The position numbers and the translations under genes were made by a program. Below are positions 4,557 through 30,054 of a stretch of 32,000 bases of DNA, piece after piece. The notes below the pieces were generated by a model. That model was not told the origin of the DNA, did no database searches, and saw only the letters and a program-made list of their open reading frames with translations. This DNA is from Alphaproteobacteria bacterium (GTDB lineage Bacteria; Pseudomonadota; Alphaproteobacteria; UBA9219; RGZA01): contig RGZA01000003.1 of the NCBI GenBank assembly GCA_010031785.1, positions 599-32,598 of the forward strand. The letters are read 5' to 3'. The first letter of the stretch is position 1. Every line of letters starts with the position of its first letter.

Positions 4557-4991
4557 TTAGGCCGCCTTTTCAGAAACAGTATCCAGTTGCTCTTCATTTT
4601 GCTTAGGACCGCTGTCCTTACCCTTTGCGGATACATCGCGGTCAACCAGTTCGATGATTGCAACGGCAGCAGCATCGCCATAACGAAAGCCTGCCTTGAG
4701 AACACGGGTGTAACCACCGGCGCGCTTTGCATAACGCGTTGCAATGGTATCAAACAATTTTGCAACCATCGCGTCATCACGCAATGCTGCAAAAGCCAGA
4801 CGGCGATTGGAAAGGCCACCTTTTTTACCAAGGGTGATCAGACGTTCAACAACCGAGCGAAGCTCTTTAGCTTTGGGAAGTGTTGTTTTGATTTGCTCAT
4901 GCTTGATGAGACTTGCAGCCATATTCGAGAACATCGCTTTGCGATGGCTTGATGTACGGTTTAATTTACGACCTGACATTCCGTGACGCAT
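4557..4991 (-). CDS. rplQ: 50S ribosomal protein L17
   Basis: [45 protein letters not shown] is a canonical L17 N-terminus. The gene follows rpoA. Confidence 0.95.
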
Positions 4992-6245: not shown

Positions 6246-6674
6246 TTATACGCGGCGGCGTTTTGGTGGGCGTACGCCATTGTGCGGGATTGGCGTTACA
6301 TCCTTGATCGATGTAATAATAAAGCCAACCGACTGCAACGCACGCAATGCTGACTCACGGCCAGCACCAGGACCCTTTACTTCAACTTCAAGGCTGCGCA
6401 TGCCATGTTCCATCGCCTTCTTGCCCGCATCTTCAGCTGCCATCTGTGCAGCATAAGGGGTTGAACGACGCGAACCCTTAAAGCCAACAACGCCCGAAGA
6501 TGACCATGCAATGGTGTTGCCATTGTTATCGCTGATGGTCACAAGCGTGTTGTTAAAGGTGGAGTTTACCTTAGCTACGCCAACCGCAATGTTCTTGCGT
6601 TCTTTGCGCTTGGTACGTGGTGCGCCTGCTTTATCGCCGTCTTTTTTCGCAGGTGCTTTTTTTGCTTCAGCCAT
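6246..6674 (-). CDS. rpsK: 30S ribosomal protein S11
   Basis: [34 protein letters not shown]...[11 protein letters not shown]...[18 protein letters not shown] is a canonical S11 sequence. Confidence 0.95.
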
Positions 6675-6712
6675 GATGATCTTCCTTAAATGTGCTCAAT
6701 TATTTCTTGCCA

Positions 6713-7093
6713 TTACTTCTTAGTAGCGATTTTCTTGCCAGCGATTGGTTTAGCCGGGCCCTTACGTGTACGCGCATTGGTGTGCGTACGTTGACCACGA
6801 ACCGGCAATCCTTTGCGATGACGTAAACCGCGGTAGCAGCCAAGATCCATAAGGCGTTTGATGTTCATCGCGATATCGCGGCGAAGATCGCCTTCTACTT
6901 TGAATTGACCATCGATGAATTCGCGAATTTTCAAAACTTCGTTATCGGTCAATTGATTGACGCGCTTTGCATCAGGAATAGCCAAGGCATCGCAAATCTG
7001 GCGCGCACGCAAAGGGCCTACACCAAAAATGTAACGTAACGAAATCCATACCGGTTTATTTGTCGGTATATTTACACCAGCAATACGAGCCAC
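6713..7093 (-). CDS. rpsM: 30S ribosomal protein S13
   Basis: Start re-placed at GTG 7093 (GGGGAG upstream), giving the canonical (M)[37 protein letters not shown] follows. Confidence 0.9.
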
Positions 7094-7246
7094 GCGCTTC
7101 TCCCCCAGAGAATAAAAAAACAAAAACTCAAAAACAAAAAAAGCCGCACCAAATCCGCCCTTTAATCAGGCACATCCAGTCGGTTGCGCTTTTTTGTAAA
7201 ACTATATTCCTAAGAAACACGTCTTCCTCAGGAAATTGTGAGGCGG

Positions 7247-7429: not shown

Positions 7430-7762
7430 ATGAATCCCGCAATGGTCAGCTCAGGACTTGAAATAGCCGGGTATAAGATTGTCAAACATGTCGGCATTGT
7501 TCGCGGCATCGTGGTGCGCTCGCGCTCAATCGTTGGTAATTTTTTTGCAGGGCTGCAAACCATTTTGGGTGGCAACATTACCATCTATACCAATTTGTGC
7601 GAACGCACCCGCACCGATGCATATGCGCTCATGTGCAAGCATGCAGAAAAGAATGGCGCGAATGCCATCATCTCCATGCGATATGATGCAACGGAACTCG
7701 ATCGCGGCGTAACCGAAGTTTTATGTTATGGTACAGCCGTTATTGTTGAGGAGATAAAATAA
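7430..7762 (+). CDS. ybjQ: YbjQ/UPF0145 family protein (putative heavy-metal-binding domain)
   Basis: 110 aa. VRGIVVRSRSIVGNFFAGLQTILGGNITIYTNLCERTRTDAYALMCKHAEKNGANAIISMRYD...GTAV is typical of the YbjQ family. Confidence 0.8.
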   Translation: MNPAMVSSGLEIAGYKIVKHVGIVRGIVVRSRSIVGNFFAGLQTILGGNITIYTNLCERTRTDAYALMCKHAEKNGANAIISMRYDATELDRGVTEVLCYGTAVIVEEIK

Positions 7763-7971
7763 TGAAAGCACTTACTATTTTCTGCTTCATTTTATTTCTG
7801 GCAGGCGTTGCGGCATTTCTTGGGCAGATGTGGTTCAGCCTGTGGAGCTCTGGCATTTTTCTTAAAATCATCATTACAGATGTCGCCCTGTTTGCGATTG
7901 CCTTTGTGCTGGCATTCCTGATTAAGGAAAACAAGGAAAGCAAAAACATCCATAATGGCGATTTGCAGTAA
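7762..7971 (+). CDS. small hypothetical membrane protein (2 TM helices)
   Basis: 69 aa. The ATGA start overlaps the ybjQ stop. Two hydrophobic helices (ALTIFCFILFLAGVAAFL, IIITDVALFAIAFVLAFLI). No recognisable family. Confidence 0.45.
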   Translation: MKALTIFCFILFLAGVAAFLGQMWFSLWSSGIFLKIIITDVALFAIAFVLAFLIKENKESKNIHNGDLQ

Positions 7972-7996
7972 TCATTATTCAGAATCTCGTTCGGGA

Positions 7997-9685
7997 TTAT
8001 GCCGTTAAGTGTATTTCAGGCAGGCGAATGATCAGTTGCGTGCCCTTATGCATTTCTGAGCGCAATTCGGCTTGGCCATTTAAACGCAAAACCGCCTGAT
8101 ACACCGCCGACATGCCTGCCCCGCGCCCTGACAGCATGCTGACTTCATCGCGCGTTGATACATCATGCGTTAGCAGATGCTGAATAATATGCTGGTCATC
8201 ATCAAAGCGCCAGTTCCCTTCCGGATCTGCGCTGGCTAGTTTTTGACGCACACGGTTCGGGTCAATCCCTGCGCCATCATCGGCGATGGTAATTTCAATC
8301 CACTTGCGTCCATTATCGATGATGGATTTCACAGAAATGGTTACCTGGCCATACGCATCCTTGCCCTTGGCCATACGCGTAATGGGCGATTCAATTCCAT
8401 GATCAATAATGTTGTGCACCACATGGGTGAATGACATCAGCAAATATTGTAACGGCTTGGCAGGCATGCGTAAGGCTTCACCTTTAAAGATAATCGGCTT
8501 GATTTTCTTTTCGAGTTTTTCCGCAATGGGCTGCATCTGGCGATCAAGCGATTTGAGCAAGGTAAAGAGCGGCACAGATAACAGGTTGCTCTGATAGGCA
8601 TAATAAATATGCGGTGCGACGTTATTCTGCTTAAGTAATTCACCAAACTGATAGAGCGATTCTTCATCCACTTCCACAATGCCCTGAATGCGCCCATCTT
8701 CGTCACCTAGGATAGGGCGTAAGGCCTTTTGAATACGGCCAAATTCCAGTTGAACATCGGCGCGGTGTTGCGCAAGCTTTTCCTGAACAGCGTCGGTAAT
8801 AACATGCACATCGCCAAGCTGTACATCGCGCAAAGTGCTTTCGAGTTCATGAAGCTTCTCACCAAGTGCTTCCATCTTGAAATGCATCGCTGCACCTTTG
8901 ATGGTATGAACGTCGCGGAAAAATTCTGCGCTGGCCAGGCTTGAATCCACACGCACCAGCCGGTCAATGATCAGTTTTATCTCGCTCAGGATCAGCATGA
9001 AGCTTTGCTTCTCTGCAAAGATCGAGCAGACCATCGCAACAAACTGGCGTTCACTATCCGCGCGCTTTTGCGCTTCTTTTTCTTGGGTTTTGTCGGTTGC
9101 AATTAACACAATACACAGCAGATGACCCTGCTTGTCGCGTACCGGACGGTAGGTAAGTTCTGCAATACGGCCATTATCCTGCACGAGTTGATCAGGAAGG
9201 AAGCGCGCCGCATCTTCAAAACTAAGCGCATGATCGGGCATAAACAAAATGCCCAGCCATTCATAAAAATCGGCATGATCGGCTGACGCAATTTTCAATA
9301 AATCGGTGATATTTTTTCCGGCAATGTCATCACAGTGCAAGAGCAGACGAGAAGCCTGCGAATAGGCCGGACCACAAATCCCCTTACTATCAAAGGTAAG
9401 AAACCCCTGCCCAAGGCTATTCATAAGCACATCACTAAGACGCGCATGCTCAAGCACAATTCTGTGCGCACGCACATTCATACGATAGAGATAGGCAATG
9501 CCAATGCACACCACCAGCGTAATTACCAATGCCACTTCACCAGAACGCATCGGATTAAAGCCATAGGCTGGCAACAACAATCCTACCATCAACAGCAATG
9601 CCATGAGTGACAGGCCGCCAAGTGTCGTATGGATAATTTCTACTTGCTTCAGAGTTTGCTGTGCAGAAGGTTTTGCAGTGCTCAT
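7997..9685 (-). CDS. membrane-anchored PAS / HPt / CheA-type HATPase histidine kinase (no CheW-like P5 domain)
   Basis: 562 aa. Two N-terminal TM helices and a PAS-like segment (LGQGFLTFDSKG...LLCIVLIATDKT). HPt motif FFRDVHTIKGAA. CheA-type N box HVVHNIIDHGIE, G1 DDGAGID and G2 GRGAGM. The protein ends right after the ATPase domain. Confidence 0.8.
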   Translation of the reverse strand: MSTAKPSAQQTLKQVEIIHTTLGGLSLMALLLMVGLLLPAYGFNPMRSGEVALVITLVVCIGIAYLYRMNVRAHRIVLEHARLSDVLMNSLGQGFLTFDSKGICGPAYSQASRLLLHCDDIAGKNITDLLKIASADHADFYEWLGILFMPDHALSFEDAARFLPDQLVQDNGRIAELTYRPVRDKQGHLLCIVLIATDKTQEKEAQKRADSERQFVAMVCSIFAEKQSFMLILSEIKLIIDRLVRVDSSLASAEFFRDVHTIKGAAMHFKMEALGEKLHELESTLRDVQLGDVHVITDAVQEKLAQHRADVQLEFGRIQKALRPILGDEDGRIQGIVEVDEESLYQFGELLKQNNVAPHIYYAYQSNLLSVPLFTLLKSLDRQMQPIAEKLEKKIKPIIFKGEALRMPAKPLQYLLMSFTHVVHNIIDHGIESPITRMAKGKDAYGQVTISVKSIIDNGRKWIEITIADDGAGIDPNRVRQKLASADPEGNWRFDDDQHIIQHLLTHDVSTRDEVSMLSGRGAGMSAVYQAVLRLNGQAELRSEMHKGTQLIIRLPEIHLTA

Positions 9686-10197
9686 TTCATGCTCCCATGA
9701 AGCGCGACATGAATTTGAAAGACACTGCCTTCAAGTTCAAAATGCATCAGCATGTAGCGGCCTTCATGCATCTGTGAAATAAAATGCCCGCCGCCCAATA
9801 TGACACTTGGCATACCAAAGCGCAGATGATGGCCGCGCTGGTTCAGCGCTGTCTTGATCTGCCCGAAAATCATATTGGTGATTTCGCCCACGGCATCCAT
9901 CGCCACATCCTGGGTGATTTCAATGCCATCGCCAAGCAAGCGTGGCAGAATTTTATTCATTACGGTGATATTGAAACAGGCGGTTAGCGTGCCTTCAAGT
10001 TTTTCCTGTATAAAGCCAACCACGCCGTATACATCGCCGGTTAAGCTTACCGATCCCTCGCCAATGACATAGCGGCCAGCTTTGACAGGAACATCAAAAG
10101 TTTTTCCAAAGGCCTCGCTGACTGCAAAGGTAAAATCCTGCGCAAGCTGATCACCCAGTGAAAGGGCAAGCGGTTTTGATGCAAGGGCGGCTGTCAT
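9682..10197 (-). CDS. CheX/CheC-family CheY-P phosphatase-like protein
   Basis: 171 aa. The CheC/CheX/FliY signature D-x3-E-x2-N-x21-P is present (DAVGEITNMIFGQIKTALNQRGHHLRFGMP). The stop overlaps the kinase start (ATGA). Confidence 0.7.
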   Translation of the reverse strand: MTAALASKPLALSLGDQLAQDFTFAVSEAFGKTFDVPVKAGRYVIGEGSVSLTGDVYGVVGFIQEKLEGTLTACFNITVMNKILPRLLGDGIEITQDVAMDAVGEITNMIFGQIKTALNQRGHHLRFGMPSVILGGGHFISQMHEGRYMLMHFELEGSVFQIHVALHGSMK

Positions 10198-10204
10198 ATA
10201 AGGC

Positions 10205-10630
10205 CTATGTCTTTGCCATGCGGCGGTTTTTCAGCCAATCCATTACTTCACGGATTTTCTTGTTAAGCTCAATCGGCGCAATCGGCTTCAGGATATAGGA
10301 CGTTGCGCCCATCTTGATGGCCTTCATGATATTTTGTTTTTCAGATTCCGCAGTGAACATGACAATCGCGGTGTTCTGGTACTGCGGTTTGGTGCGGATA
10401 TAGGCCAGCACATCAATGCCCGACATTTGCGGCATATTCCAATCAAGGAAAATAATGTCATAGAGATTTTTATTGGCGAGCGACGTAGTGATCGCCTCGA
10501 CCGCTTCAGTGCCATCATTGGCAAGATCTATATTCTGAAACCCTGAATCAACAAGGGTGCGTTTTACAAATTGCCGGATGAGAAAATGATCATCCGCAAT
10601 TAATATTTTTGACTGTAGATCAAGCGACAC
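10205..10630 (-). CDS. single-domain CheY-like response regulator
   Basis: 141 aa with a GTG start (GAGGA upstream). Acidic pocket ILIADD, phospho-acceptor context IIFLDWNMPQMSG, then MFTAE and YILKP. No output domain. Confidence 0.85.
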   Translation of the reverse strand: MSLDLQSKILIADDHFLIRQFVKRTLVDSGFQNIDLANDGTEAVEAITTSLANKNLYDIIFLDWNMPQMSGIDVLAYIRTKPQYQNTAIVMFTAESEKQNIMKAIKMGATSYILKPIAPIELNKKIREVMDWLKNRRMAKT

Positions 10631-10783
10631 GGCAAACCATCCTCAACAGTAAATGATAGAAAATACATATAATTGAGCCATACTCTTGTGCCATGAAAGG
10701 ATTGACATGAGGTTAAGGATGGCTTTGTATGAAAAACTTATTAATACTCAATCGTTTCTGCACTCTAATGAACCCGTGAAATC

Positions 10784-12013
10784 ATGCTTCAAGACTCCAG
10801 CAAAACATTAAGTCCATTTGTGATCATGACAATCCTGGTCACAACGCTTGGCTATTTTGTGGATGTGTATGACATATTTGTTTTCTCCGCCAGTCGAATG
10901 ACATCGCTGAAAGAAATTGGTGTTCCACCTGAGAAAATTATGGATAGCGGCATCTTCCTTCTCAACTTGCAAATGGTTGGCATGCTGATCGGTGGAGTAG
11001 TGTTTGGAATGGCAGGCGATAAATTGGGTCGCTCACGTGTCATGATGATTTCTATTTTGACCTACGCGCTTTCTACGCTTGCCAATGCTTTTGTTACAAA
11101 TATAGAAACATTTGCTGTGCTGCGTTTTCTTTCCGGCTTTGGTTTATCCGGAGAACTTGGGCTTGGCGCAACATTGATCTCGGAAATTTTATCCAAGGAA
11201 AAACGTGGCCTTGGCGTAGGCATCATGGTGTCCTTTGGCGTAACAGGCGCAGTAGTTGCAGGGATCATGGCGCAACTCTTTGATTGGCGCATATGCTATA
11301 TTATTGGCGGCGTGATGGGATTACTTCTGCTTGTTTTTCGCATGAAGATGATTGAATCCGGCATATTCAAAAACATCCCTGAACACGCAGAAAAAGGCAA
11401 TATTATGCTGCTTTTTAAAAGCCGCGAACGCTTCATGCGCTTCTTCTGGTGCGTGACCCTTGGGCTGCCTACATGGTTCGTGGTTGGAATTCTTATGACC
11501 TTTGCGCCAGAGATTTTGCCGAGCGCAAACCTTCCTGTTATCCCAACGGCTGTGTTGATGGTCTATTGCTATGGGGTAATGCCCCTTGGTGATCTCTCAA
11601 GCATTATACTGTGCCAGCTTTTCAAAAAACGTCAGCCAGTGATTGTATTGTTTATCATCCTGTCCATTATCGGGCCCCTTGCGATGTTATATCTGCCACG
11701 TCCCTTAAGCGAACTGGATGTAAAACTTCTTTTCTCCTTCACATGTTTTGGCGCAGGTGCGTGGGTGTTGATGTGCATGGTCTCGGCGGAAAGTTTTGGA
11801 ACGAACTTGCGCGCAACAGTTACAACCACAGTTCCTAATTTTGCCAGAGGATCTGTTATTCTGATGACGATGTTGTTGAGTGCATTAAAAGCACACATGC
11901 CCTTGCTCGATGCCGTGATGATTGTGGGCGCGGTTGCGTTTATTCTGCCGCTGATTGCGCTAACGCAATTGCCGGAAACCTTCGGCAGATCGCTTGAATA
12001 TCTTGAAAAGTAA
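10784..12013 (+). CDS. MFS transporter
   Basis: 409 aa with about 12 hydrophobic segments. MFS motif A-like GDKLGRSRVMM between TM2 and TM3. LSGFGLSGELG and SKEKRGLG blocks. Confidence 0.8.
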   Translation: MLQDSSKTLSPFVIMTILVTTLGYFVDVYDIFVFSASRMTSLKEIGVPPEKIMDSGIFLLNLQMVGMLIGGVVFGMAGDKLGRSRVMMISILTYALSTLANAFVTNIETFAVLRFLSGFGLSGELGLGATLISEILSKEKRGLGVGIMVSFGVTGAVVAGIMAQLFDWRICYIIGGVMGLLLLVFRMKMIESGIFKNIPEHAEKGNIMLLFKSRERFMRFFWCVTLGLPTWFVVGILMTFAPEILPSANLPVIPTAVLMVYCYGVMPLGDLSSIILCQLFKKRQPVIVLFIILSIIGPLAMLYLPRPLSELDVKLLFSFTCFGAGAWVLMCMVSAESFGTNLRATVTTTVPNFARGSVILMTMLLSALKAHMPLLDAVMIVGAVAFILPLIALTQLPETFGRSLEYLEK

Positions 12014-12103: not shown

Positions 12104-12769
12104 TTATATGAGATTCAAAACCTTTTTTATTTCCGCATGCACTGCGTCCATCTCACCCATGCCATCAACCTGCAGCAAAATACCCTGGTTACGGTAATAA
12201 GGAATAATCGGCGCAGTTTGCGCATGATAAGCCTGAAGCCGCGTTGTCATGGTTTCTGCATTATCATCCGGGCGGCGAATGAACTCATGGCCATGACATT
12301 TGTTGCATTCACCTGCTTTTTCAAGAGGCTTGAAACTGTCATGATAACCTTCACCGCATTTGGTGCAGGTAAAGCGACCCGATACACGCTCAACCAGCGC
12401 AGCATCATCAACCTTCATTTCCACAACAGCTTTTAATTTCAAATCTCGTTTTTGCAGCATGGCATCCAATGCCTGCGCTTGCGGAACTGTGCGCGGAAAA
12501 CCATCAAGGATAAATCCTTTTTTGGCTTCGGGCTTTTGCATCCATTCCTCGATCAGACGAATGATCAGATCATCCGGAACAAGCTTACCCGCATCCATAT
12601 AGGTTTTTGCTTCACGGCCCAATGCGGTGCCAGCTTTTACGGCCGCACGCAATACATCGCCGGTTGAAAGCTGGGTCATGCCATACTGTTCTTCAAGGCG
12701 ACGTGCTTGTGTTCCTTTACCAGCGCCAGGAGGGCCCAAAAGAATAATCGGTTCAGCAGCTGGATTCAT
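12104..12769 (-). CDS. adk: adenylate kinase (Cys4 zinc-type LID)
   Basis: P-loop GPPGAGKGTQ, LSTGDVLR and GFILDGFPRT. The LID carries CTKC...CNKC. The start overlaps the secY stop by 1 nt. Confidence 0.95.
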   Translation of the reverse strand: MNPAAEPIILLGPPGAGKGTQARRLEEQYGMTQLSTGDVLRAAVKAGTALGREAKTYMDAGKLVPDDLIIRLIEEWMQKPEAKKGFILDGFPRTVPQAQALDAMLQKRDLKLKAVVEMKVDDAALVERVSGRFTCTKCGEGYHDSFKPLEKAGECNKCHGHEFIRRPDDNAETMTTRLQAYHAQTAPIIPYYRNQGILLQVDGMGEMDAVHAEIKKVLNLI

Positions 12770-14320: not shown

Positions 14321-14809
14321 TTAAGCCGCTGCTGCTTCTGCACCAACAATCGTCACTTTGCCGCCGAGCTTTTCAACCGCAGCAACAGCCGCAGCCGATG
14401 CGCGTGAAACACTGATGGTGATCTTGGTCTTGATCTCGCCCTTGGCAAGGAGGCTTACGCCGCCCTTTGCATTGGTCACAACACCCGAAAGGATCATCAT
14501 TTCTTCAGTGATGGTTTCTTTCGCATTCAAACGACCAGCATCCAGTGCTTCTTGCAGACGGCCAAGATTCATAACCGCATAGTGAATAGCATTTGGGTTA
14601 TTGAAACCACGCTTTGGCATACGGCGGTAAAGGGGCATCTGGCCACCTTCAAACGCTTTCAGACGTACGCCTGAACGTGCCTTTTGTCCCTTAACACCGC
14701 GACCCGACGTCTTGCCTTGTGCTGAGCCAATACCACGGCCAACAATCATTGGGCGTTTGCGTGCGCCTTCGTTATCACGAATTTCATTTAGTTTAATAGG
14801 CAGTTTCAT
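14321..14809 (-). CDS. rplO: 50S ribosomal protein L15
   Basis: GRGIGSAQGKTSGRGVKGQKARSG...FEGGQMPLYRRMPKRGF is a canonical L15 sequence. Confidence 0.95.
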   Translation of the reverse strand: MKLPIKLNEIRDNEGARKRPMIVGRGIGSAQGKTSGRGVKGQKARSGVRLKAFEGGQMPLYRRMPKRGFNNPNAIHYAVMNLGRLQEALDAGRLNAKETITEEMMILSGVVTNAKGGVSLLAKGEIKTKITISVSRASAAAVAAVEKLGGKVTIVGAEAAAA

Positions 14810-14812
14810 AGT

Positions 14813-15424
14813 TTACTCCTCTTTCGCGGATTCTTTTGATGCATCTGCATCAAGCTTGCCGCCATATTCTTTTTGCTTGCCAACAATATCGCTAACTTTT
14901 TTACCGCGACGGTTTGCAACCTGACGTGGGCTAACGGTATTTTTCAATGCTTCCAGCGTTGCCAAAATCATGTTGTGCGGGTTGGATGAACCAACCGACT
15001 TTGAAATCACGTCTTGTACGCCAAGCGCTTCGAATACGGCACGCATCGGGCCGCCGGAAATGATACCGGTACCAGGAGGCGCTGTACGCAATACAACTTT
15101 ACCTGCGCCGTAATGGCCATACACATCGTGATGGATGGTGCGGCCTTCACGCAATGGAATGCGCATCATGTTGCGCTTTGCGCCTTCGGTTGCTTTTTTA
15201 ACAGCATCAGGAACTTCGCGTGCCTTTGCGTGAGCAAAACCAATGCGACCTTTTTGATCGCCAACAACCATAAGTGCAGAGAAACCAAAACGCTTACCGC
15301 CTTTTACCACTTTGGCAACGCGGATAACGGCAACCAGTTTTTCAACAAACGGGTTTTCACCCTGATCGTTGTTGCGGTTGTCAGAACGTTTGTCGTCTTC
15401 TTGTTTTTTAGGACGTTGAGCCAT
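14813..15424 (-). CDS. rpsE: 30S ribosomal protein S5 (with charged N- and C-terminal extensions)
   Basis: [46 protein letters not shown]...[13 protein letters not shown] is a canonical S5 core. Confidence 0.95.
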
Positions 15425-23979: not shown

Positions 23980-24111
23980 GAGAATCGCTTTCTTCTTTTT
24001 TTCCTGCTCCTTGGTCTTTGAGCTTTTCGTTTATGCAGTCATTGCAAAAAATCAAAAAGCAAATAGCCAAAAAGACTTTCCATTTGACAGACTTTCCGGA
24101 CAATCCCAAGA

Positions 24112-25299
24112 TTACTCAATAATCTTAGCAACAACGCCTGCACCTACGGTGCGGCCACCTTCACGAATAGCAAAGCGCAGACCTTCATCCATAGCGATTG
24201 GGGAGATAAGCTTCACTTCAATCGCGATGTTGTCGCCTGGCATTACCATTTCCGTACCGGCTGGCAGAATAACTTCGCCAGTAACGTCGGTGGTACGGAA
24301 GTAGAATTGTGGACGGTAGTCGTTGAAGAATGGCGTATGACGGCCACCTTCTTCCTTGGTCAGAACGTAGATTTCTGCCTTGAACTTGGTGTGTGGGGTG
24401 ATGGTGCCTGGCTTAGCCAATACTTGGCCGCGCTCAACATCTTCACGCTTGGTACCACGGAGCAATGCACCGATGTTGTCGCCTGCTTCGCCTTGATCCA
24501 AAAGCTTGCGGAACATTTCAACGCCCGTAACGATGGTTTTTTGGGTTGGGCGAATACCAACGATTTCGATTTCTTCGCCAACTTTAACAATACCACGTTC
24601 AACGCGTCCGGTAACAACCGTACCACGGCCAGAGATCGAGAACACGTCTTCGATTGGCATCAGGAATGGCTTGTCAACTTCACGCTTTGGTTGTGGGATG
24701 TAGCTATCAACAGCTTCCATCAGCTTGATAATAGCTTGTTCGCCGATTTCTGGTTGCTTGTCTTCAAGCGCGCAAACAGCAGAACCCTTGATGATGGGGA
24801 TTTCATCGCCTGGGAACTTGTAGGATTTCAGCAAATCGCGGATTTCCATTTCTACCAGTTCAACCAGATCCTTATCAGCAAGATCCATCTTGTTCATGAA
24901 TACCACAATCGCAGGAACACCTACTTGGCGAGCAAGCAGAATGTGTTCGCGGGTTTGTGGCATTGGGCCGTCAGCAGCTGAAACAACGAGAATCGCGCCA
25001 TCCATCTGAGCCGCACCGGTGATCATGTTCTTCACATAATCGGCGTGGCCTGGGCAATCAACGTGTGCGTAGTGGCGGTTTGCGGTTTGGTATTCAACGT
25101 GTGCGGTTGAAATCGTAATACCACGTGCGCGTTCTTCAGGTGCTTTATCGATCATGTCGTAAGCAGTGAAGGTTGCGCCGCCGGACTTGGCGAGAACCTT
25201 GGTAATCGCAGCAGTCAATGATGTTTTGCCATGATCAACGTGACCGATGGTGCCGATGTTGCAGTGCGGCTTACTGCGATCAAACTTTTCTTTTGCCAT
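24112..25299 (-). CDS. tuf: elongation factor Tu
   Basis: 395 aa. [23 protein letters not shown] and NKMD GTPase motifs. Canonical EF-Tu along the full length. Confidence 0.98.
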
Positions 25300-25345: not shown

Positions 25346-27424
25346 TTAACTGGCTAACTTAGCTTTCACTTCATCAGCGACATTCTGTGGAACCCGATCA
25401 TAATGATGGAACTCCATCGAATAACTTGCACGACCCTGCGACATGGAGCGCAGCGTGTTAACATAACCGAACATGGCGGCGAGCGGCACGGATGCTTCGA
25501 TCACGCGCGCATTACCGCGTTGATCCATTCCAAGCACCTGACCACGACGGCTGTTTAAATCGCCGATCACGTCGCCCATGTAATCTTCTGGGGTTACTAC
25601 TTCAACTTTCATGATTGGCTCTAGCAATACTGGGCCGGCCTTTTGCATACCCTCACGGAATGCTGCACGTGCAGCGATTTCGAATGCGAGCGCGGACGAA
25701 TCCACGTCATGGTATGCACCATCAATAAGCGTGATCTTGAAATCGATCGATGGGAAGCCAGCGATAACGCCGGTGTTCTTTGCTGATTCCAGACCCTTTT
25801 CAACGCCCGGGATGTATTCTTTTGGAACTGCACCGCCCTTAAGGTTGGTTGCGAATTCAAAACCCGTACCTGGTTCCAATGGTTCGAATTCCATGATGAC
25901 GCGGGCAAATTGACCCGTACCACCGGATTGCTTTTTATGAGTGTAATCCACCGTTGTTTTTTTGCTGATGGTTTCGCGGTAGGCAACTTGCGGTGCGCCA
26001 ACGGTTGCATCAACCTTGTAGGTACGGCGAAGAATATCGACCTTAATTTCAAGATGAAGCTCGCCCATACCCTTAAGAATGGTTTGGCCGGTTTCTTGGT
26101 CAGAGGTAACGCGGAATGATGGATCTTCTTGTGCAAGACGAGCAAGGGCAACGCCCATTTTTTCTTGGTCAGCCTTGGTCTTTGGCTCAATCGCAACTTC
26201 GATAACCGGATCGGGGAATACCATGCGTTCCAGAATAATTGGCTTTGCTTCATCGCAAAGTGTTTCACCAGTTGTGGTTTCTTTAAGCGCTGTCAAAGCA
26301 ACGATGTCACCCGCATAGGCTTCCTTGATTTCTTCGCGTGTATTAGCATGCATGAGCAACATGCGGCCAATACGTTCGCGCTTATCTTTAATGGTGTTTT
26401 GAACATAGGAACCTGATTCCAGCTTACCGGAGTAAACGCGGAAGAAGGTCAATGAACCCACGAATGGATCAGTCATAATCTTGAATGCTAAACCGCTGAA
26501 TGGTTCAGCATCGGAAGCATTACGGGTCATTTCTTCGCCTGTATCAGGATGCACACCCTTCACCGCTGGAATGTCGAGTGGTGAAGGAAGATAATCAACC
26601 ACTGCGTCTAACATTGGCTGAACGCCCTTGTTCTTAAATGCAGAGCCGCACAATACAGGTACAAATTTACGGCTGATGCAACCCTTGCGGATGCACATCT
26701 TTAATGTCGCAAGGTCTGGTTCTTGACCATTCAGATAGGCTTCCATCGCCTTATCATCCATTTCAACAGCCATATCGAGCATCTTGGCGCGGTATTCCGC
26801 AGCCTTTTCTTTAAGATCAGCTGGAATGTCGGTTTCAAAGAATTCTGCGCCTAGGGCCTCGTCTTTCCAAACAACAGCCTTCATCTTCAAAAGATCAATG
26901 ATACCTTTGTGCTCAGCTTCGGTACCGATTGGCAACTGGGTTACCAATGGGTTTGCGCCAAGGCGGTCGATCATCATCTCAACGGTGCGGTAGAAATTCG
27001 CACCAGTGCGATCCATCTTATTGACGAATGCAATACGTGGAACATTATACTTATCAGCTTGACGCCATACGGTTTCGGATTGTGGCTCAACGCCAGCAAC
27101 CGAGTCATACACAGCAATCGCGCCATCAAGTACGCGAAGTGAGCGCTCAACTTCGATGGTGAAATCCACGTGGCCGGGGGTATCAATAATATTGAGACGG
27201 TGACCGTTCCAGAAGCAGGTGGTCGCAGCAGATGTAATGGTAATACCGCGTTCTTGTTCTTGTTCCATCCAATCCATCGTCGCAGCGCCATCATGCACTT
27301 CGCCAATTTTGTGGGATTTACCGGTATAGTACAAAATACGTTCAGTGGTCGTCGTTTTACCAGCATCGATGTGAGCCATGATGCCGAAATTGCGGTATTT
27401 TTCGAGAGGGTACTGACGGGCCAT
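25346..27424 (-). CDS. fusA: elongation factor G
   Basis: 692 aa. [20 protein letters not shown] and NKMD motifs. Canonical EF-G domains I-V. Confidence 0.98.
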
Positions 27425-27473: not shown

Positions 27474-27738
27474 TTACCAACGATAATGAGCAAATGCCTT
27501 ATTCGCATCTGCCATACGATGGGTGTCTTCGCGCTTCTTGATCGCAGCGCCGCGATTATTGATTGCATCCATGATTTCACCAGCAAGGCGATCGATCATG
27601 GTTTTTTCATTACGTGAACGTGCTGCATTGATCATCCAGCGCATTGCAAGTGCAAGGCCGCGATTTGCCAAGGACAAGATCACCGAACTTTGGATCGGGG
27701 AGAATTTCGCGTTTTTCTGCTCTATGACGACGTGACAT
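27474..27738 (-). pseudogene. rpsG: 30S ribosomal protein S7 remnant with an internal ~200-bp deletion and frame disruption
   Basis: ATG 27738 (AAGGA upstream) gives [23 protein letters not shown], then non-S7 residues and a stop at 27610-27612. The S7 C-terminus [62 protein letters not shown] (track ORF 27474-27683) is in a different frame. Only 265 bp is present where about 470 bp is expected. Confidence 0.8.
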
Positions 27739-27757
27739 GCTTTAATTCCTTTTAAGA

Positions 27758-28129
27758 TTATTTCGGACGCTTCGCGCCATACTTTGAACGGCGCTGCTTG
27801 CGGTCTTTTACGCCTTGGGTATCAAGGGTACCGCGAATGATGTGGTAACGAACGCCTGGCAAATCCTTCACACGACCGCCACGGATCATCACAACACTAT
27901 GCTCTTGAAGATTGTGCTTTTCACCAGGAATGTAGCTGATGACTTCAAAGCCATTGGTCAGGCGCACACGAGCAACCTTACGCAAAGCAGAGTTTGGCTT
28001 CTTTGGCGTGGTTGTGTAAACGCGGGTGCATACACCGCGACGTTGTGGCGATTCCTGCAAGGCTGGAACCTTGTCACGGGTCTTCTTTAAGCCGCGTTGC
28101 TTGCGGATAAGCTGGTTAATTGTTGGCAT
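27758..28129 (-). CDS. rpsL: 30S ribosomal protein S12
   Basis: [13 protein letters not shown]...[63 protein letters not shown] is a canonical S12 sequence. Confidence 0.98.
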
Positions 28130-28562: not shown

Positions 28563-29279
28563 TTAATTTTCCTTAACTGCGCCAAAGGCAGCAAAACAGC
28601 TGTTTTTATGCAAAACCTCGACATTACAAAACCCAACTTTGCGCAATAAATCCAGTTGAAACATCAAAGAACGAGGAGAATCTTCCTGTGCGATATAATC
28701 GAATACCTTATCACGATATGCCTCGTCTTTCAGATTAGAAAGATAAACACCATAACGCTTCCACATCATCGCTTGCACACGTGCATCCGAATGCTCGATT
28801 AAATCTGAAATCCAGATGGAGCCCTGTTGCTTAAGCGACGCATGCAGTTTAGTAAACACCGCTTCCCATTCGGCTGTTTCGCGCAAATGGTGCAAAACCG
28901 CTGACGCACATATGATATCAAATTGGGATTCCCCAATGTTTAGTTCGCGCACATCCGCTTGAATAGCAGTCACCTTGCCCGATGTTACAAGACTAACGCG
29001 CTCTACCGCACGTTCCAACATGGGCGCACTAAGGTCTATGAGCGTTACATTCAGATTTGGCAAACGTTCCAATATTTTAAGGGAATAATTGCCAGCTCCA
29101 CAGCCAACATCAAGCAACGACGTTGCTGTGGCAGGAGCCAAGCTTGAGGCTGCTTCAGCGATCAACGCAAGCGATAACGGTGCATCAATCGTAGCCGATT
29201 GTCCCGTTTCAAGATTTGAAAAACGCTCAACATCAGCATCAAAGCGTTCACGAATTTGCGCTACGGTGGATTTATTCAT
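28563..29279 (-). CDS. class I SAM-dependent methyltransferase
   Basis: 238 aa. Motif I LLDVGCGAGNYS, post-I acidic LIDLS, and a later block FDIICASAVLHHL. The overall layout resembles CmoA-like small-molecule/tRNA methyltransferases, but the substrate cannot be inferred. Confidence 0.75.
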   Translation of the reverse strand: MNKSTVAQIRERFDADVERFSNLETGQSATIDAPLSLALIAEAASSLAPATATSLLDVGCGAGNYSLKILERLPNLNVTLIDLSAPMLERAVERVSLVTSGKVTAIQADVRELNIGESQFDIICASAVLHHLRETAEWEAVFTKLHASLKQQGSIWISDLIEHSDARVQAMMWKRYGVYLSNLKDEAYRDKVFDYIAQEDSPRSLMFQLDLLRKVGFCNVEVLHKNSCFAAFGAVKEN

Positions 29280-29368: not shown

Positions 29369-29767
29369 TCAACTTTTTTGCCAATCAATCTTACCGCCCA
29401 TTTTTTTGATTTGCTGCTCAATTTCTGGGGTAATTTGTTTTAGAACCTCCGGCCATGGAAGACGGCTCCACCCCGATGTAGCAAGAAAAATAATATCACC
29501 CTGAACATGAAACAGAATCGTAGTTTCAGTTCCCAAAACCTGCATATGCGAAAGCACGGCAGAAAAATGCACAGGGTCAATCGTACCTAGACGATGCGGC
29601 TTTTCTAGTTTTTTAATAAAGGCATCCACTTTTTCAAACCATTTGCGTGCAAACACTTCCCCTTCGGTTTGCTCAAGATAATCCATAGTTTTATAAATAC
29701 TCATATCAAACTCGGTCGTTCGCCGAATACGATACTGCTTATGCAAAATAGGAACGCTGCGCTTCAC
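29369..29767 (-). CDS. RelE/ParE-superfamily toxin-like protein with a ~30-aa C-terminal extension
   Basis: 132 aa with a 4-nt overlap onto the upstream antitoxin gene. The N-terminal helical hairpin pattern YRIRRTTEFDMSIYKTMDYLEQ...FARKWFEKVDAFIKKLEKPHRLG and the beta segment TTILFHVQGDIIFLATSG resemble ParE/RelE folds. The usual catalytic/basic C-terminal residues are not evident. Confidence 0.5.
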   Translation of the reverse strand: MKRSVPILHKQYRIRRTTEFDMSIYKTMDYLEQTEGEVFARKWFEKVDAFIKKLEKPHRLGTIDPVHFSAVLSHMQVLGTETTILFHVQGDIIFLATSGWSRLPWPEVLKQITPEIEQQIKKMGGKIDWQKS

Positions 29768-30054
29768 TTTTTGCGGCGCTCACTGCGGCGCTTGGCAATA
29801 TGCTGCATGCTTTCTTGCAATAACCGCTCCCCATCATATTCACGGTGATGGCCATTCACGACATCCGCCATGCCGCGCCTAACGCTGGCTGATAATTCTG
29901 ATTGACGCGCATTTTCCATCGCTTCAAAATCATGTGCAGACACATAATAACCCACAGGCCTGCCGTGACTGGTTACTTCAATCGGCTCTCGCTGTACTTC
30001 CTGATTGCGGCGACCAAAATTATTGACAAATTCCGTGGCTGTAAGGGTAATCAT
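29764..30054 (-). CDS. Phd/YefM-family type II antitoxin
   Basis: 96 aa. MITLTATEFVNNFGRRNQEVQREPIEVTSHGRPVGYYVSAHDFEAME is a typical Phd/YefM N-terminal domain. The C-terminus is basic and probably disordered. Confidence 0.75.
   Translation of the reverse strand: MITLTATEFVNNFGRRNQEVQREPIEVTSHGRPVGYYVSAHDFEAMENARQSELSASVRRGMADVVNGHHREYDGERLLQESMQHIAKRRSERRKK

Follow-up and report, generated by a model that had tools for sequence, protein, structure and literature searches.

The str Operon and the rpsG Remnants

The 32,000-nt stretch of DNA analysed here (the window) contains a gene cluster that is like the canonical rpsL-rpsG-fusA-tuf str operon in position, strand, and neighbours. The synteny of a uS7 gene is preserved, with rpsL upstream and fusA and tuf downstream, all on the minus strand. 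The rpsL gene (27758-28129, minus strand) is intact and encodes ribosomal protein S12 of 123 aa plus stop. Its product matches the Pfam family PF00164 (Ribosom_S12_S23, E = 6.6e-41) and is exactly the GenBank protein NDE89645.1. The fusA gene (25346-27424, minus strand) is also intact and encodes an EF-G of 692 aa with all EF-G domains, exactly the GenBank protein NDE89643.1. The tuf gene (24112-25299, minus strand) has been assigned from its ORF and Pfam match. Only 281 nt lie between rpsL and the S7-type stop codon (27474-27476). A first-pass annotation, made from the sequence alone, had described rpsG as lacking its central core, with two remnants out of frame between an intact rpsL and an intact fusA. 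The ORFs, the Pfam matches, and the comparison with an intact allele all confirm this description.

The upstream remnant, or head, occupies 27665-27738 on the minus strand. Its 74 nt run from the start codon through 24 complete native codons to the second base of codon 25. The ATG at 27738 is preceded by an AAGGA ribosome-binding site, and both the ribosome-binding site and the start are native. Past the junction, this frame encodes unrelated residues and stops at 27610-27612. The S7 start at ATG 27738 had been recognized earlier, with an S7-like N-terminus of about 23 residues; the start holds, but comparison with the intact allele extends the native part to 25 residues. The downstream remnant, or tail, occupies 27474-27664 on the minus strand and consists of 191 nt, which run from the second base of codon 97 through codon 159 to the stop. 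Its frame differs from that of the head. It opens at GTG 27683, 55 nt from the ATG, and reads RGLALAMRW...AFAHYRW up to the stop at 27474-27476. The conserved C-terminal third had been placed in another frame with this same 55-nt offset, and it matches positions 93-148 of the 148-position Ribosomal_S7 profile (Pfam PF00177, E = 2.6e-22).

The N-terminal piece, an ORF of 42 aa, has no Pfam match and is too short to score alone. Translation of the window in the three frames gives no continuous S7 ORF in any of them. A functional uS7 covers profile positions 1-148 in about 155-160 aa, and the window offers only pieces of 42 and 69 aa. The proposed check by profile and frame therefore bears out the gap, since the two pieces together leave the S7 domain interrupted and do not share a frame. 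When the intact S7 is used as a tblastn query, the only residues that can be found in the window are 1-25 (100%) and 96-159. The region lost from the window corresponds to the helical core and the beta-hairpin RRVGGATYQVPVDV of bacterial uS7. The call of a broken gene is a direct sequence comparison; no statistical pattern is involved, and chance plays no part in it.

The Intact Allele in Other Assemblies

Metagenome contigs of essentially the same strain have been retrieved by exact-protein matches to the EF-G, S12, methyltransferase, SecY, and RpoA of the window, and these contigs have then been compared with the window by BLAST. The segment missing from the window is present in all five assemblies in which the locus has been recovered. 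In the 18.9-kb contig of ERZ27247967 (L083/L092), the left flank of the junction is 100% identical to the window over 1,736 nt and the right flank is 99.9% identical over 2,664 nt. Both flanks are 100% identical in the contig of ERZ28577356 (L086/L094) and in that of JGI 3300023179 (L095), which was the sole contig returned by a scan of JGI metagenomes with a 32-nt left flank. In the contig of ERZ3460577 (L081), the left flank is 100% and the right flank 99.96% identical. The contig of ERZ28575157 (L091) is partial. Its left flank is 100% identical over 802 nt and the contig stops 7 nt beyond the right break point, so that it contains the first 98 S7 codons, the whole missing segment among them.

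A complete S7 of 159 aa is encoded identically in L081, L083/L092, L086/L094, and L095, and this protein (P0001) covers the full Pfam profile from 1 to 148. The intact allele is thus counted on four contigs, and the protein that spans the junction (P0025, discussed below) has one member on one contig. The contigs of ERZ3460577 (L081/L101) and JGI 3300023179 (L095/L102) start at the same base, window position 28001, and the two assemblies may go back to one common sample. Because of this, the number of truly independent datasets is 3 to 4 and not 5.

More distant sequences also retain the gene. Six contigs of sister species (L082, L084, L085, L088-L090), at ~89% nucleotide identity, all encode a 159-aa S7 with only 2 substitutions. 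The first full-length S7 from a relative was found on L001, through an EF-G search of genome contigs; the relatives among the matches listed there have at most 82% amino-acid identity, and the sister species do not figure among them.

Holes aside, the agreement between the window and the other assemblies is close to complete. The window and L096 share 100.000% identity across 17,427 nt, and window positions 4008-32000 are 99.7-100% identical to L097, L098, L092, L093, and L094. A 524-aa protein encoded at 2289-3863 matches no record, and the comparison of assemblies thus spans 4008-32000. Across the compared span, the only structural differences are two holes, one in rpsG and one in the spacer between tuf and rpsJ.

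Extent of the rpsG Hole

The head is 100% identical to positions 4392-4465 of L083 and the tail is 100% identical to positions 4681-4871. The bases absent from the window are exactly the 215 bp at L083 4466-4680, which make up codons 26-96 along with a single base from each of codons 25 and 97. The beta-hairpin motif of the uS7 central core (…EVRSRRVGGATYQVPVDV…) lies within this segment and is absent from the window. Compared with the same-strain S7 of 159 aa, the window rpsG shares the first 25 and the last 62 residues identically, and what follows the loss is out of frame because 215 is not divisible by 3. The intact gene has AAG as codon 25; across the window junction this codon becomes AAA, and Lys is encoded in both cases. 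With slashes at the break points, the intact allele reads ...CCTTGGCAA/GTTCATG...GTTCGCCCTG/ATCGCGGCC... and the window reads ...CCTTGGCAA/ATCGCGGCC....

The BLAST break points and the reading of the intact sequence show that the junction falls between 27665 and 27664, just at one end of the earlier estimate of 27665-27685. A central loss of ~200 bp or 65-70 codons had been proposed. The central position of the loss stands, but its size is slightly larger, at 215 bp, or codons 26-96 plus two bases. The suggested comparison with the closest relatives has therefore fixed the end points. They are joined bluntly, and the microhomology is 0 nt. A search for repeats and hairpins found no direct repeats at the end points of the hole, only short matches at chance level. 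A 9-nt imperfect inverted repeat (4462-4470/4691-4699 in L083) does not line up with the right break point. Rescue of rpsG by frameshifting or bypass has been considered and rejected, as 71 codons of the conserved core are gone in addition to the shift in frame.

The Deposited Record and the 95-aa ORF

Eight proteins of the window have exact counterparts in GenBank, NDE89640-NDE89643 and NDE89645-NDE89648 (EF-G, EF-Tu, S10, L3, S12, a methyltransferase, and two neighbours), with locus tags that begin with EB059_. The series NDE89640-NDE89648 is labelled 'MAG: Alphaproteobacteria bacterium' and belongs to a 41,359-bp contig. The same contig carries a 95-aa ORF annotated as 'hypothetical protein EB059_00675' (P0025), which was the best match in a homology search with the S7 tail. 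In the window it corresponds to 27474-27761 on the minus strand. It starts with an ATA that overlaps the rpsL stop and crosses the junction in the tail frame, and its sequence is exactly the window translation from ATA 27761 to the S7 stop. Its slot between fusA (NDE89643) and rpsL (NDE89645) fits the order of the accessions, and the gene order agrees with the locus tags as well, with 00675 for the S7 remnant and 00690 for a 111-aa hypothetical protein.

Exact look-up of the remnant ORFs of 42, 56, and 69 aa returned no record. The GenBank ORF surfaced by homology only, since its ATA start caused the exact look-up to miss it. The intact S7 is absent from NCBI and is found in JGI and ENA only, with no NCBI protein in its 90% cluster. 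The hole in rpsG is part of the deposited record and was therefore not made in preparing the window. EB059_00675 is an annotation by-product of this hole, that is, a spurious protein entry.

A Second Hole in the tuf-rpsJ Spacer

Comparison over the whole window reveals a second hole, which is seen in the window and in no other assembly. At 24105-24107, 161 bp of the tuf-rpsJ spacer are absent (L092 15390-15550). This hole begins 6 nt past the tuf stop and is 3.5 kb away from the hole in rpsG. A single nt, the g at 24106, is shared as microhomology at its junction, and a repeat search found no direct repeats flanking the hole. Both L092 and L081 contain the missing segment, whose last bases are also found at the end of L096.

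Directly after tuf, the missing segment contains a 14-nt inverted repeat that can be drawn as a hairpin, AGCGGGGTTAACGT/ACGTTTCCCCCGCT. This hairpin is probably the tuf terminator, and it fails the T-tract rule of the scanner used. The segment possibly also holds the promoter region of the S10 operon; the promoter and terminator scan of the 161 bp found a single weak promoter-like site, no better than chance. An Rfam scan of the intact str-tuf-spacer region gave a sole match, to NsiR9; its 20.8 bits are below the gathering score of 90, and it has been taken as noise.

Both holes are 160-215 bp long, have junctions that are blunt or share a single nt, and lack direct repeats at their flanks, which sets them apart from slippage-type deletions. 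Replication slippage between direct repeats has been rejected as their source, given that such repeats flank neither hole.

Origin of the Holes

The S7 protein is essential. It is a primary 16S rRNA-binding protein and nucleates the assembly of the 30S head. The broken rpsG is probably an assembly, scaffold-joining, or chimeric-read artefact of one deposited record and not a trait of the organism; we give this reading a probability of about 85%. An artefact is favoured because assemblies with flanks that are 99.9-100% identical carry a complete S7, and because a second, similar hole is found 3.5 kb off. An assembly or consensus error was one of four causes listed in the first-pass annotation, and the same two observations single it out. 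The lesion is confined to one record, with the intact allele in near-identical sequence elsewhere, and the further structural defect at about 24106 is likewise seen only in the window. A real lineage with two deletions would be expected to show differences at other positions too. The str operon of the organism itself is an ordinary one and encodes a complete S7 of 159 aa.

In the proposed course of events, 215 bp of rpsG and 161 bp of the tuf-rpsJ spacer would have been dropped from a low-coverage population during assembly, during scaffolding or contig merging, or through a chimeric read. At both holes the ends would then have been joined directly, for example by a scaffold gap closed without Ns or by a mis-join. 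The source reads would be expected to cover the gap in rpsG. The contig names of ERZ3460577 indicate a coverage of about 4x. Scaffolds of the same strain in ERZ28577356 contain N10 gaps that replace 120, 35, and -4 nt (L096 17440-17449; L094 454-463 and 1869-1878). One N10 gap falls inside rpsK (S11), in the same operon block, and leaves a 98-aa call; the window has the full rpsK ORF at 6246-6674. None of the other assemblies used here exceeds 19 kb at this locus and the GenBank contig is 41 kb long, which suggests extra joining in the latter. The end of L091 at 7 nt past the right break point hints at a break in coverage or in the assembly graph at that place.

The window resembles known misassembly and internal-gap errors of MAGs, such as collapsed scaffold gaps and chimeric joins, in having a record-private lesion of a few hundred bp in otherwise identical sequence, with a second lesion nearby. 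It is also alike in the low coverage of the population and in the N10-marked holes of up to 120 nt in other scaffolds. It differs from a typical MAG gap or graph mis-join in that it has no run of Ns and no repeat or shared k-mer at the junction. Two points thus count against an artefact. Neither junction in the window contains an N, and a de Bruijn-graph assembler does not normally produce a blunt deletion without a shared k-mer.

The deletion could instead be real but carried by a non-viable or minority genotype (a defective cell or free DNA, for instance), or stem from a chimera of library preparation or amplification, whose reads the assembler followed at low coverage. The junction is clean and is in the deposited record, one aberrant read could set the path at a coverage of about 4x, the value for a related sample, and a blunt junction is more like a chimeric molecule or end-joining than a graph error. 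However, two events 3.5 kb apart on one contig would need two independent rare molecules, all the other assemblies carry the intact allele, and 30S subunits cannot be built without the S7 core. We regard this explanation as unlikely; if true, it would have the same consequence for the annotation of the organism as an artefact. In a further reading, a real 215-bp deletion would be the dominant allele in the population of the MAG. A free-living-type alphaproteobacterium would then have lost the S7 core very recently, with no other divergence, together with a coupled 161-bp deletion that takes away the hairpin after tuf in that operon block, and would survive through an undetected divergent rpsG or through some other compensation. 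Such a bacterium would be remarkable if the deletion were real; we see no support for it here and consider this reading highly improbable.

Decay of rpsG into a true pseudogene in a host-dependent lineage, with S7 supplied by a second rpsG or by the host, appears even less probable. The broken ORF taken alone would allow it, the incompleteness of the MAG leaves room for a distant paralogue, and the window shares with the reductive-evolution pseudogenes of host-dependent bacteria a frame-shifting internal deletion in an essential-looking gene. It differs from them in that the lesion is shared by no other sample, with both same-strain and sister-species contigs intact, and in that the remnants show no additional substitutions or further decay, since they match the intact allele of L083, L086, and L095 at 100%. 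The lesion has thus not been found in any independent assembly. The flanking ribosomal genes are all intact, and the bioB/F/D/A-like, MFS transporter, chemotaxis-like kinase, and DAO genes nearby are unlike the content of a reduced genome. The earlier suggestion of ongoing decay is therefore not borne out, as the remnants are base-for-base those of the intact allele and the sister species keep S7. A second functional rpsG elsewhere, also suggested, is absent from the 32-kb window; the 90% cluster of the intact S7 contains no protein of the GenBank MAG, and such a copy is not needed. Least credible of all is a deletion introduced in preparing the window, as a deliberate or pipeline edit that is absent from public records. 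The blunt junction, the perfectly identical flanks, and the lack of the 42-, 56-, and 69-aa remnant ORFs from the records would agree with an edit. Against this, EB059_00675 (95 aa) in GenBank already crosses the junction as the exact translation of the window, and its locus tag and accession order fit between fusA and rpsL, so the earlier suspicion of a deletion made with the window can be dismissed for the rpsG hole.

With the broken rpsG read as a probable artefact of the deposited record, the biological outcome is negative, as S7 and the str operon are normal in the organism. A public MAG in which an essential gene is broken and is shown as a 95-aa 'hypothetical protein' is a flag for quality control. 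Such errors can lower completeness estimates based on marker genes, seed spurious 'hypothetical' clusters, and pass for genome reduction.

Other Features of the Window

Some further features of the window lie outside the str operon. Between adk (12104-12769) and rpsM/rpsK (6246-7123) there are ~5 kb of non-ribosomal genes (7430-12013). They encode an MFS transporter (10784-12013, plus strand), a response regulator (10205-10630), a CheX-like protein (9682-10197), an Hpt/HATPase_c kinase (7997-9685), and a YbjQ-family protein (7430-7762, plus strand). These genes interrupt the spc/alpha ribosomal block in an unusual way, and the presence of the insertion in L096 and L097 as well indicates that it is real for the organism. 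The genes rpsE (14813-15424) and rplO (14321-14809) are only 3 nt apart. The rpmD gene (L30) is absent between them, and likewise in L096.

On the other side of rpsL, a PhdYeFM-type antitoxin-like gene (29764-30054, minus strand) overlaps a partner gene (29369-29767, minus strand) whose product of 111-132 aa has no Pfam match. Together they form a probable toxin-antitoxin pair (29369-30054). The pair adjoins a gene for a class I SAM methyltransferase (28563-29279), which is located immediately upstream of rpsL.
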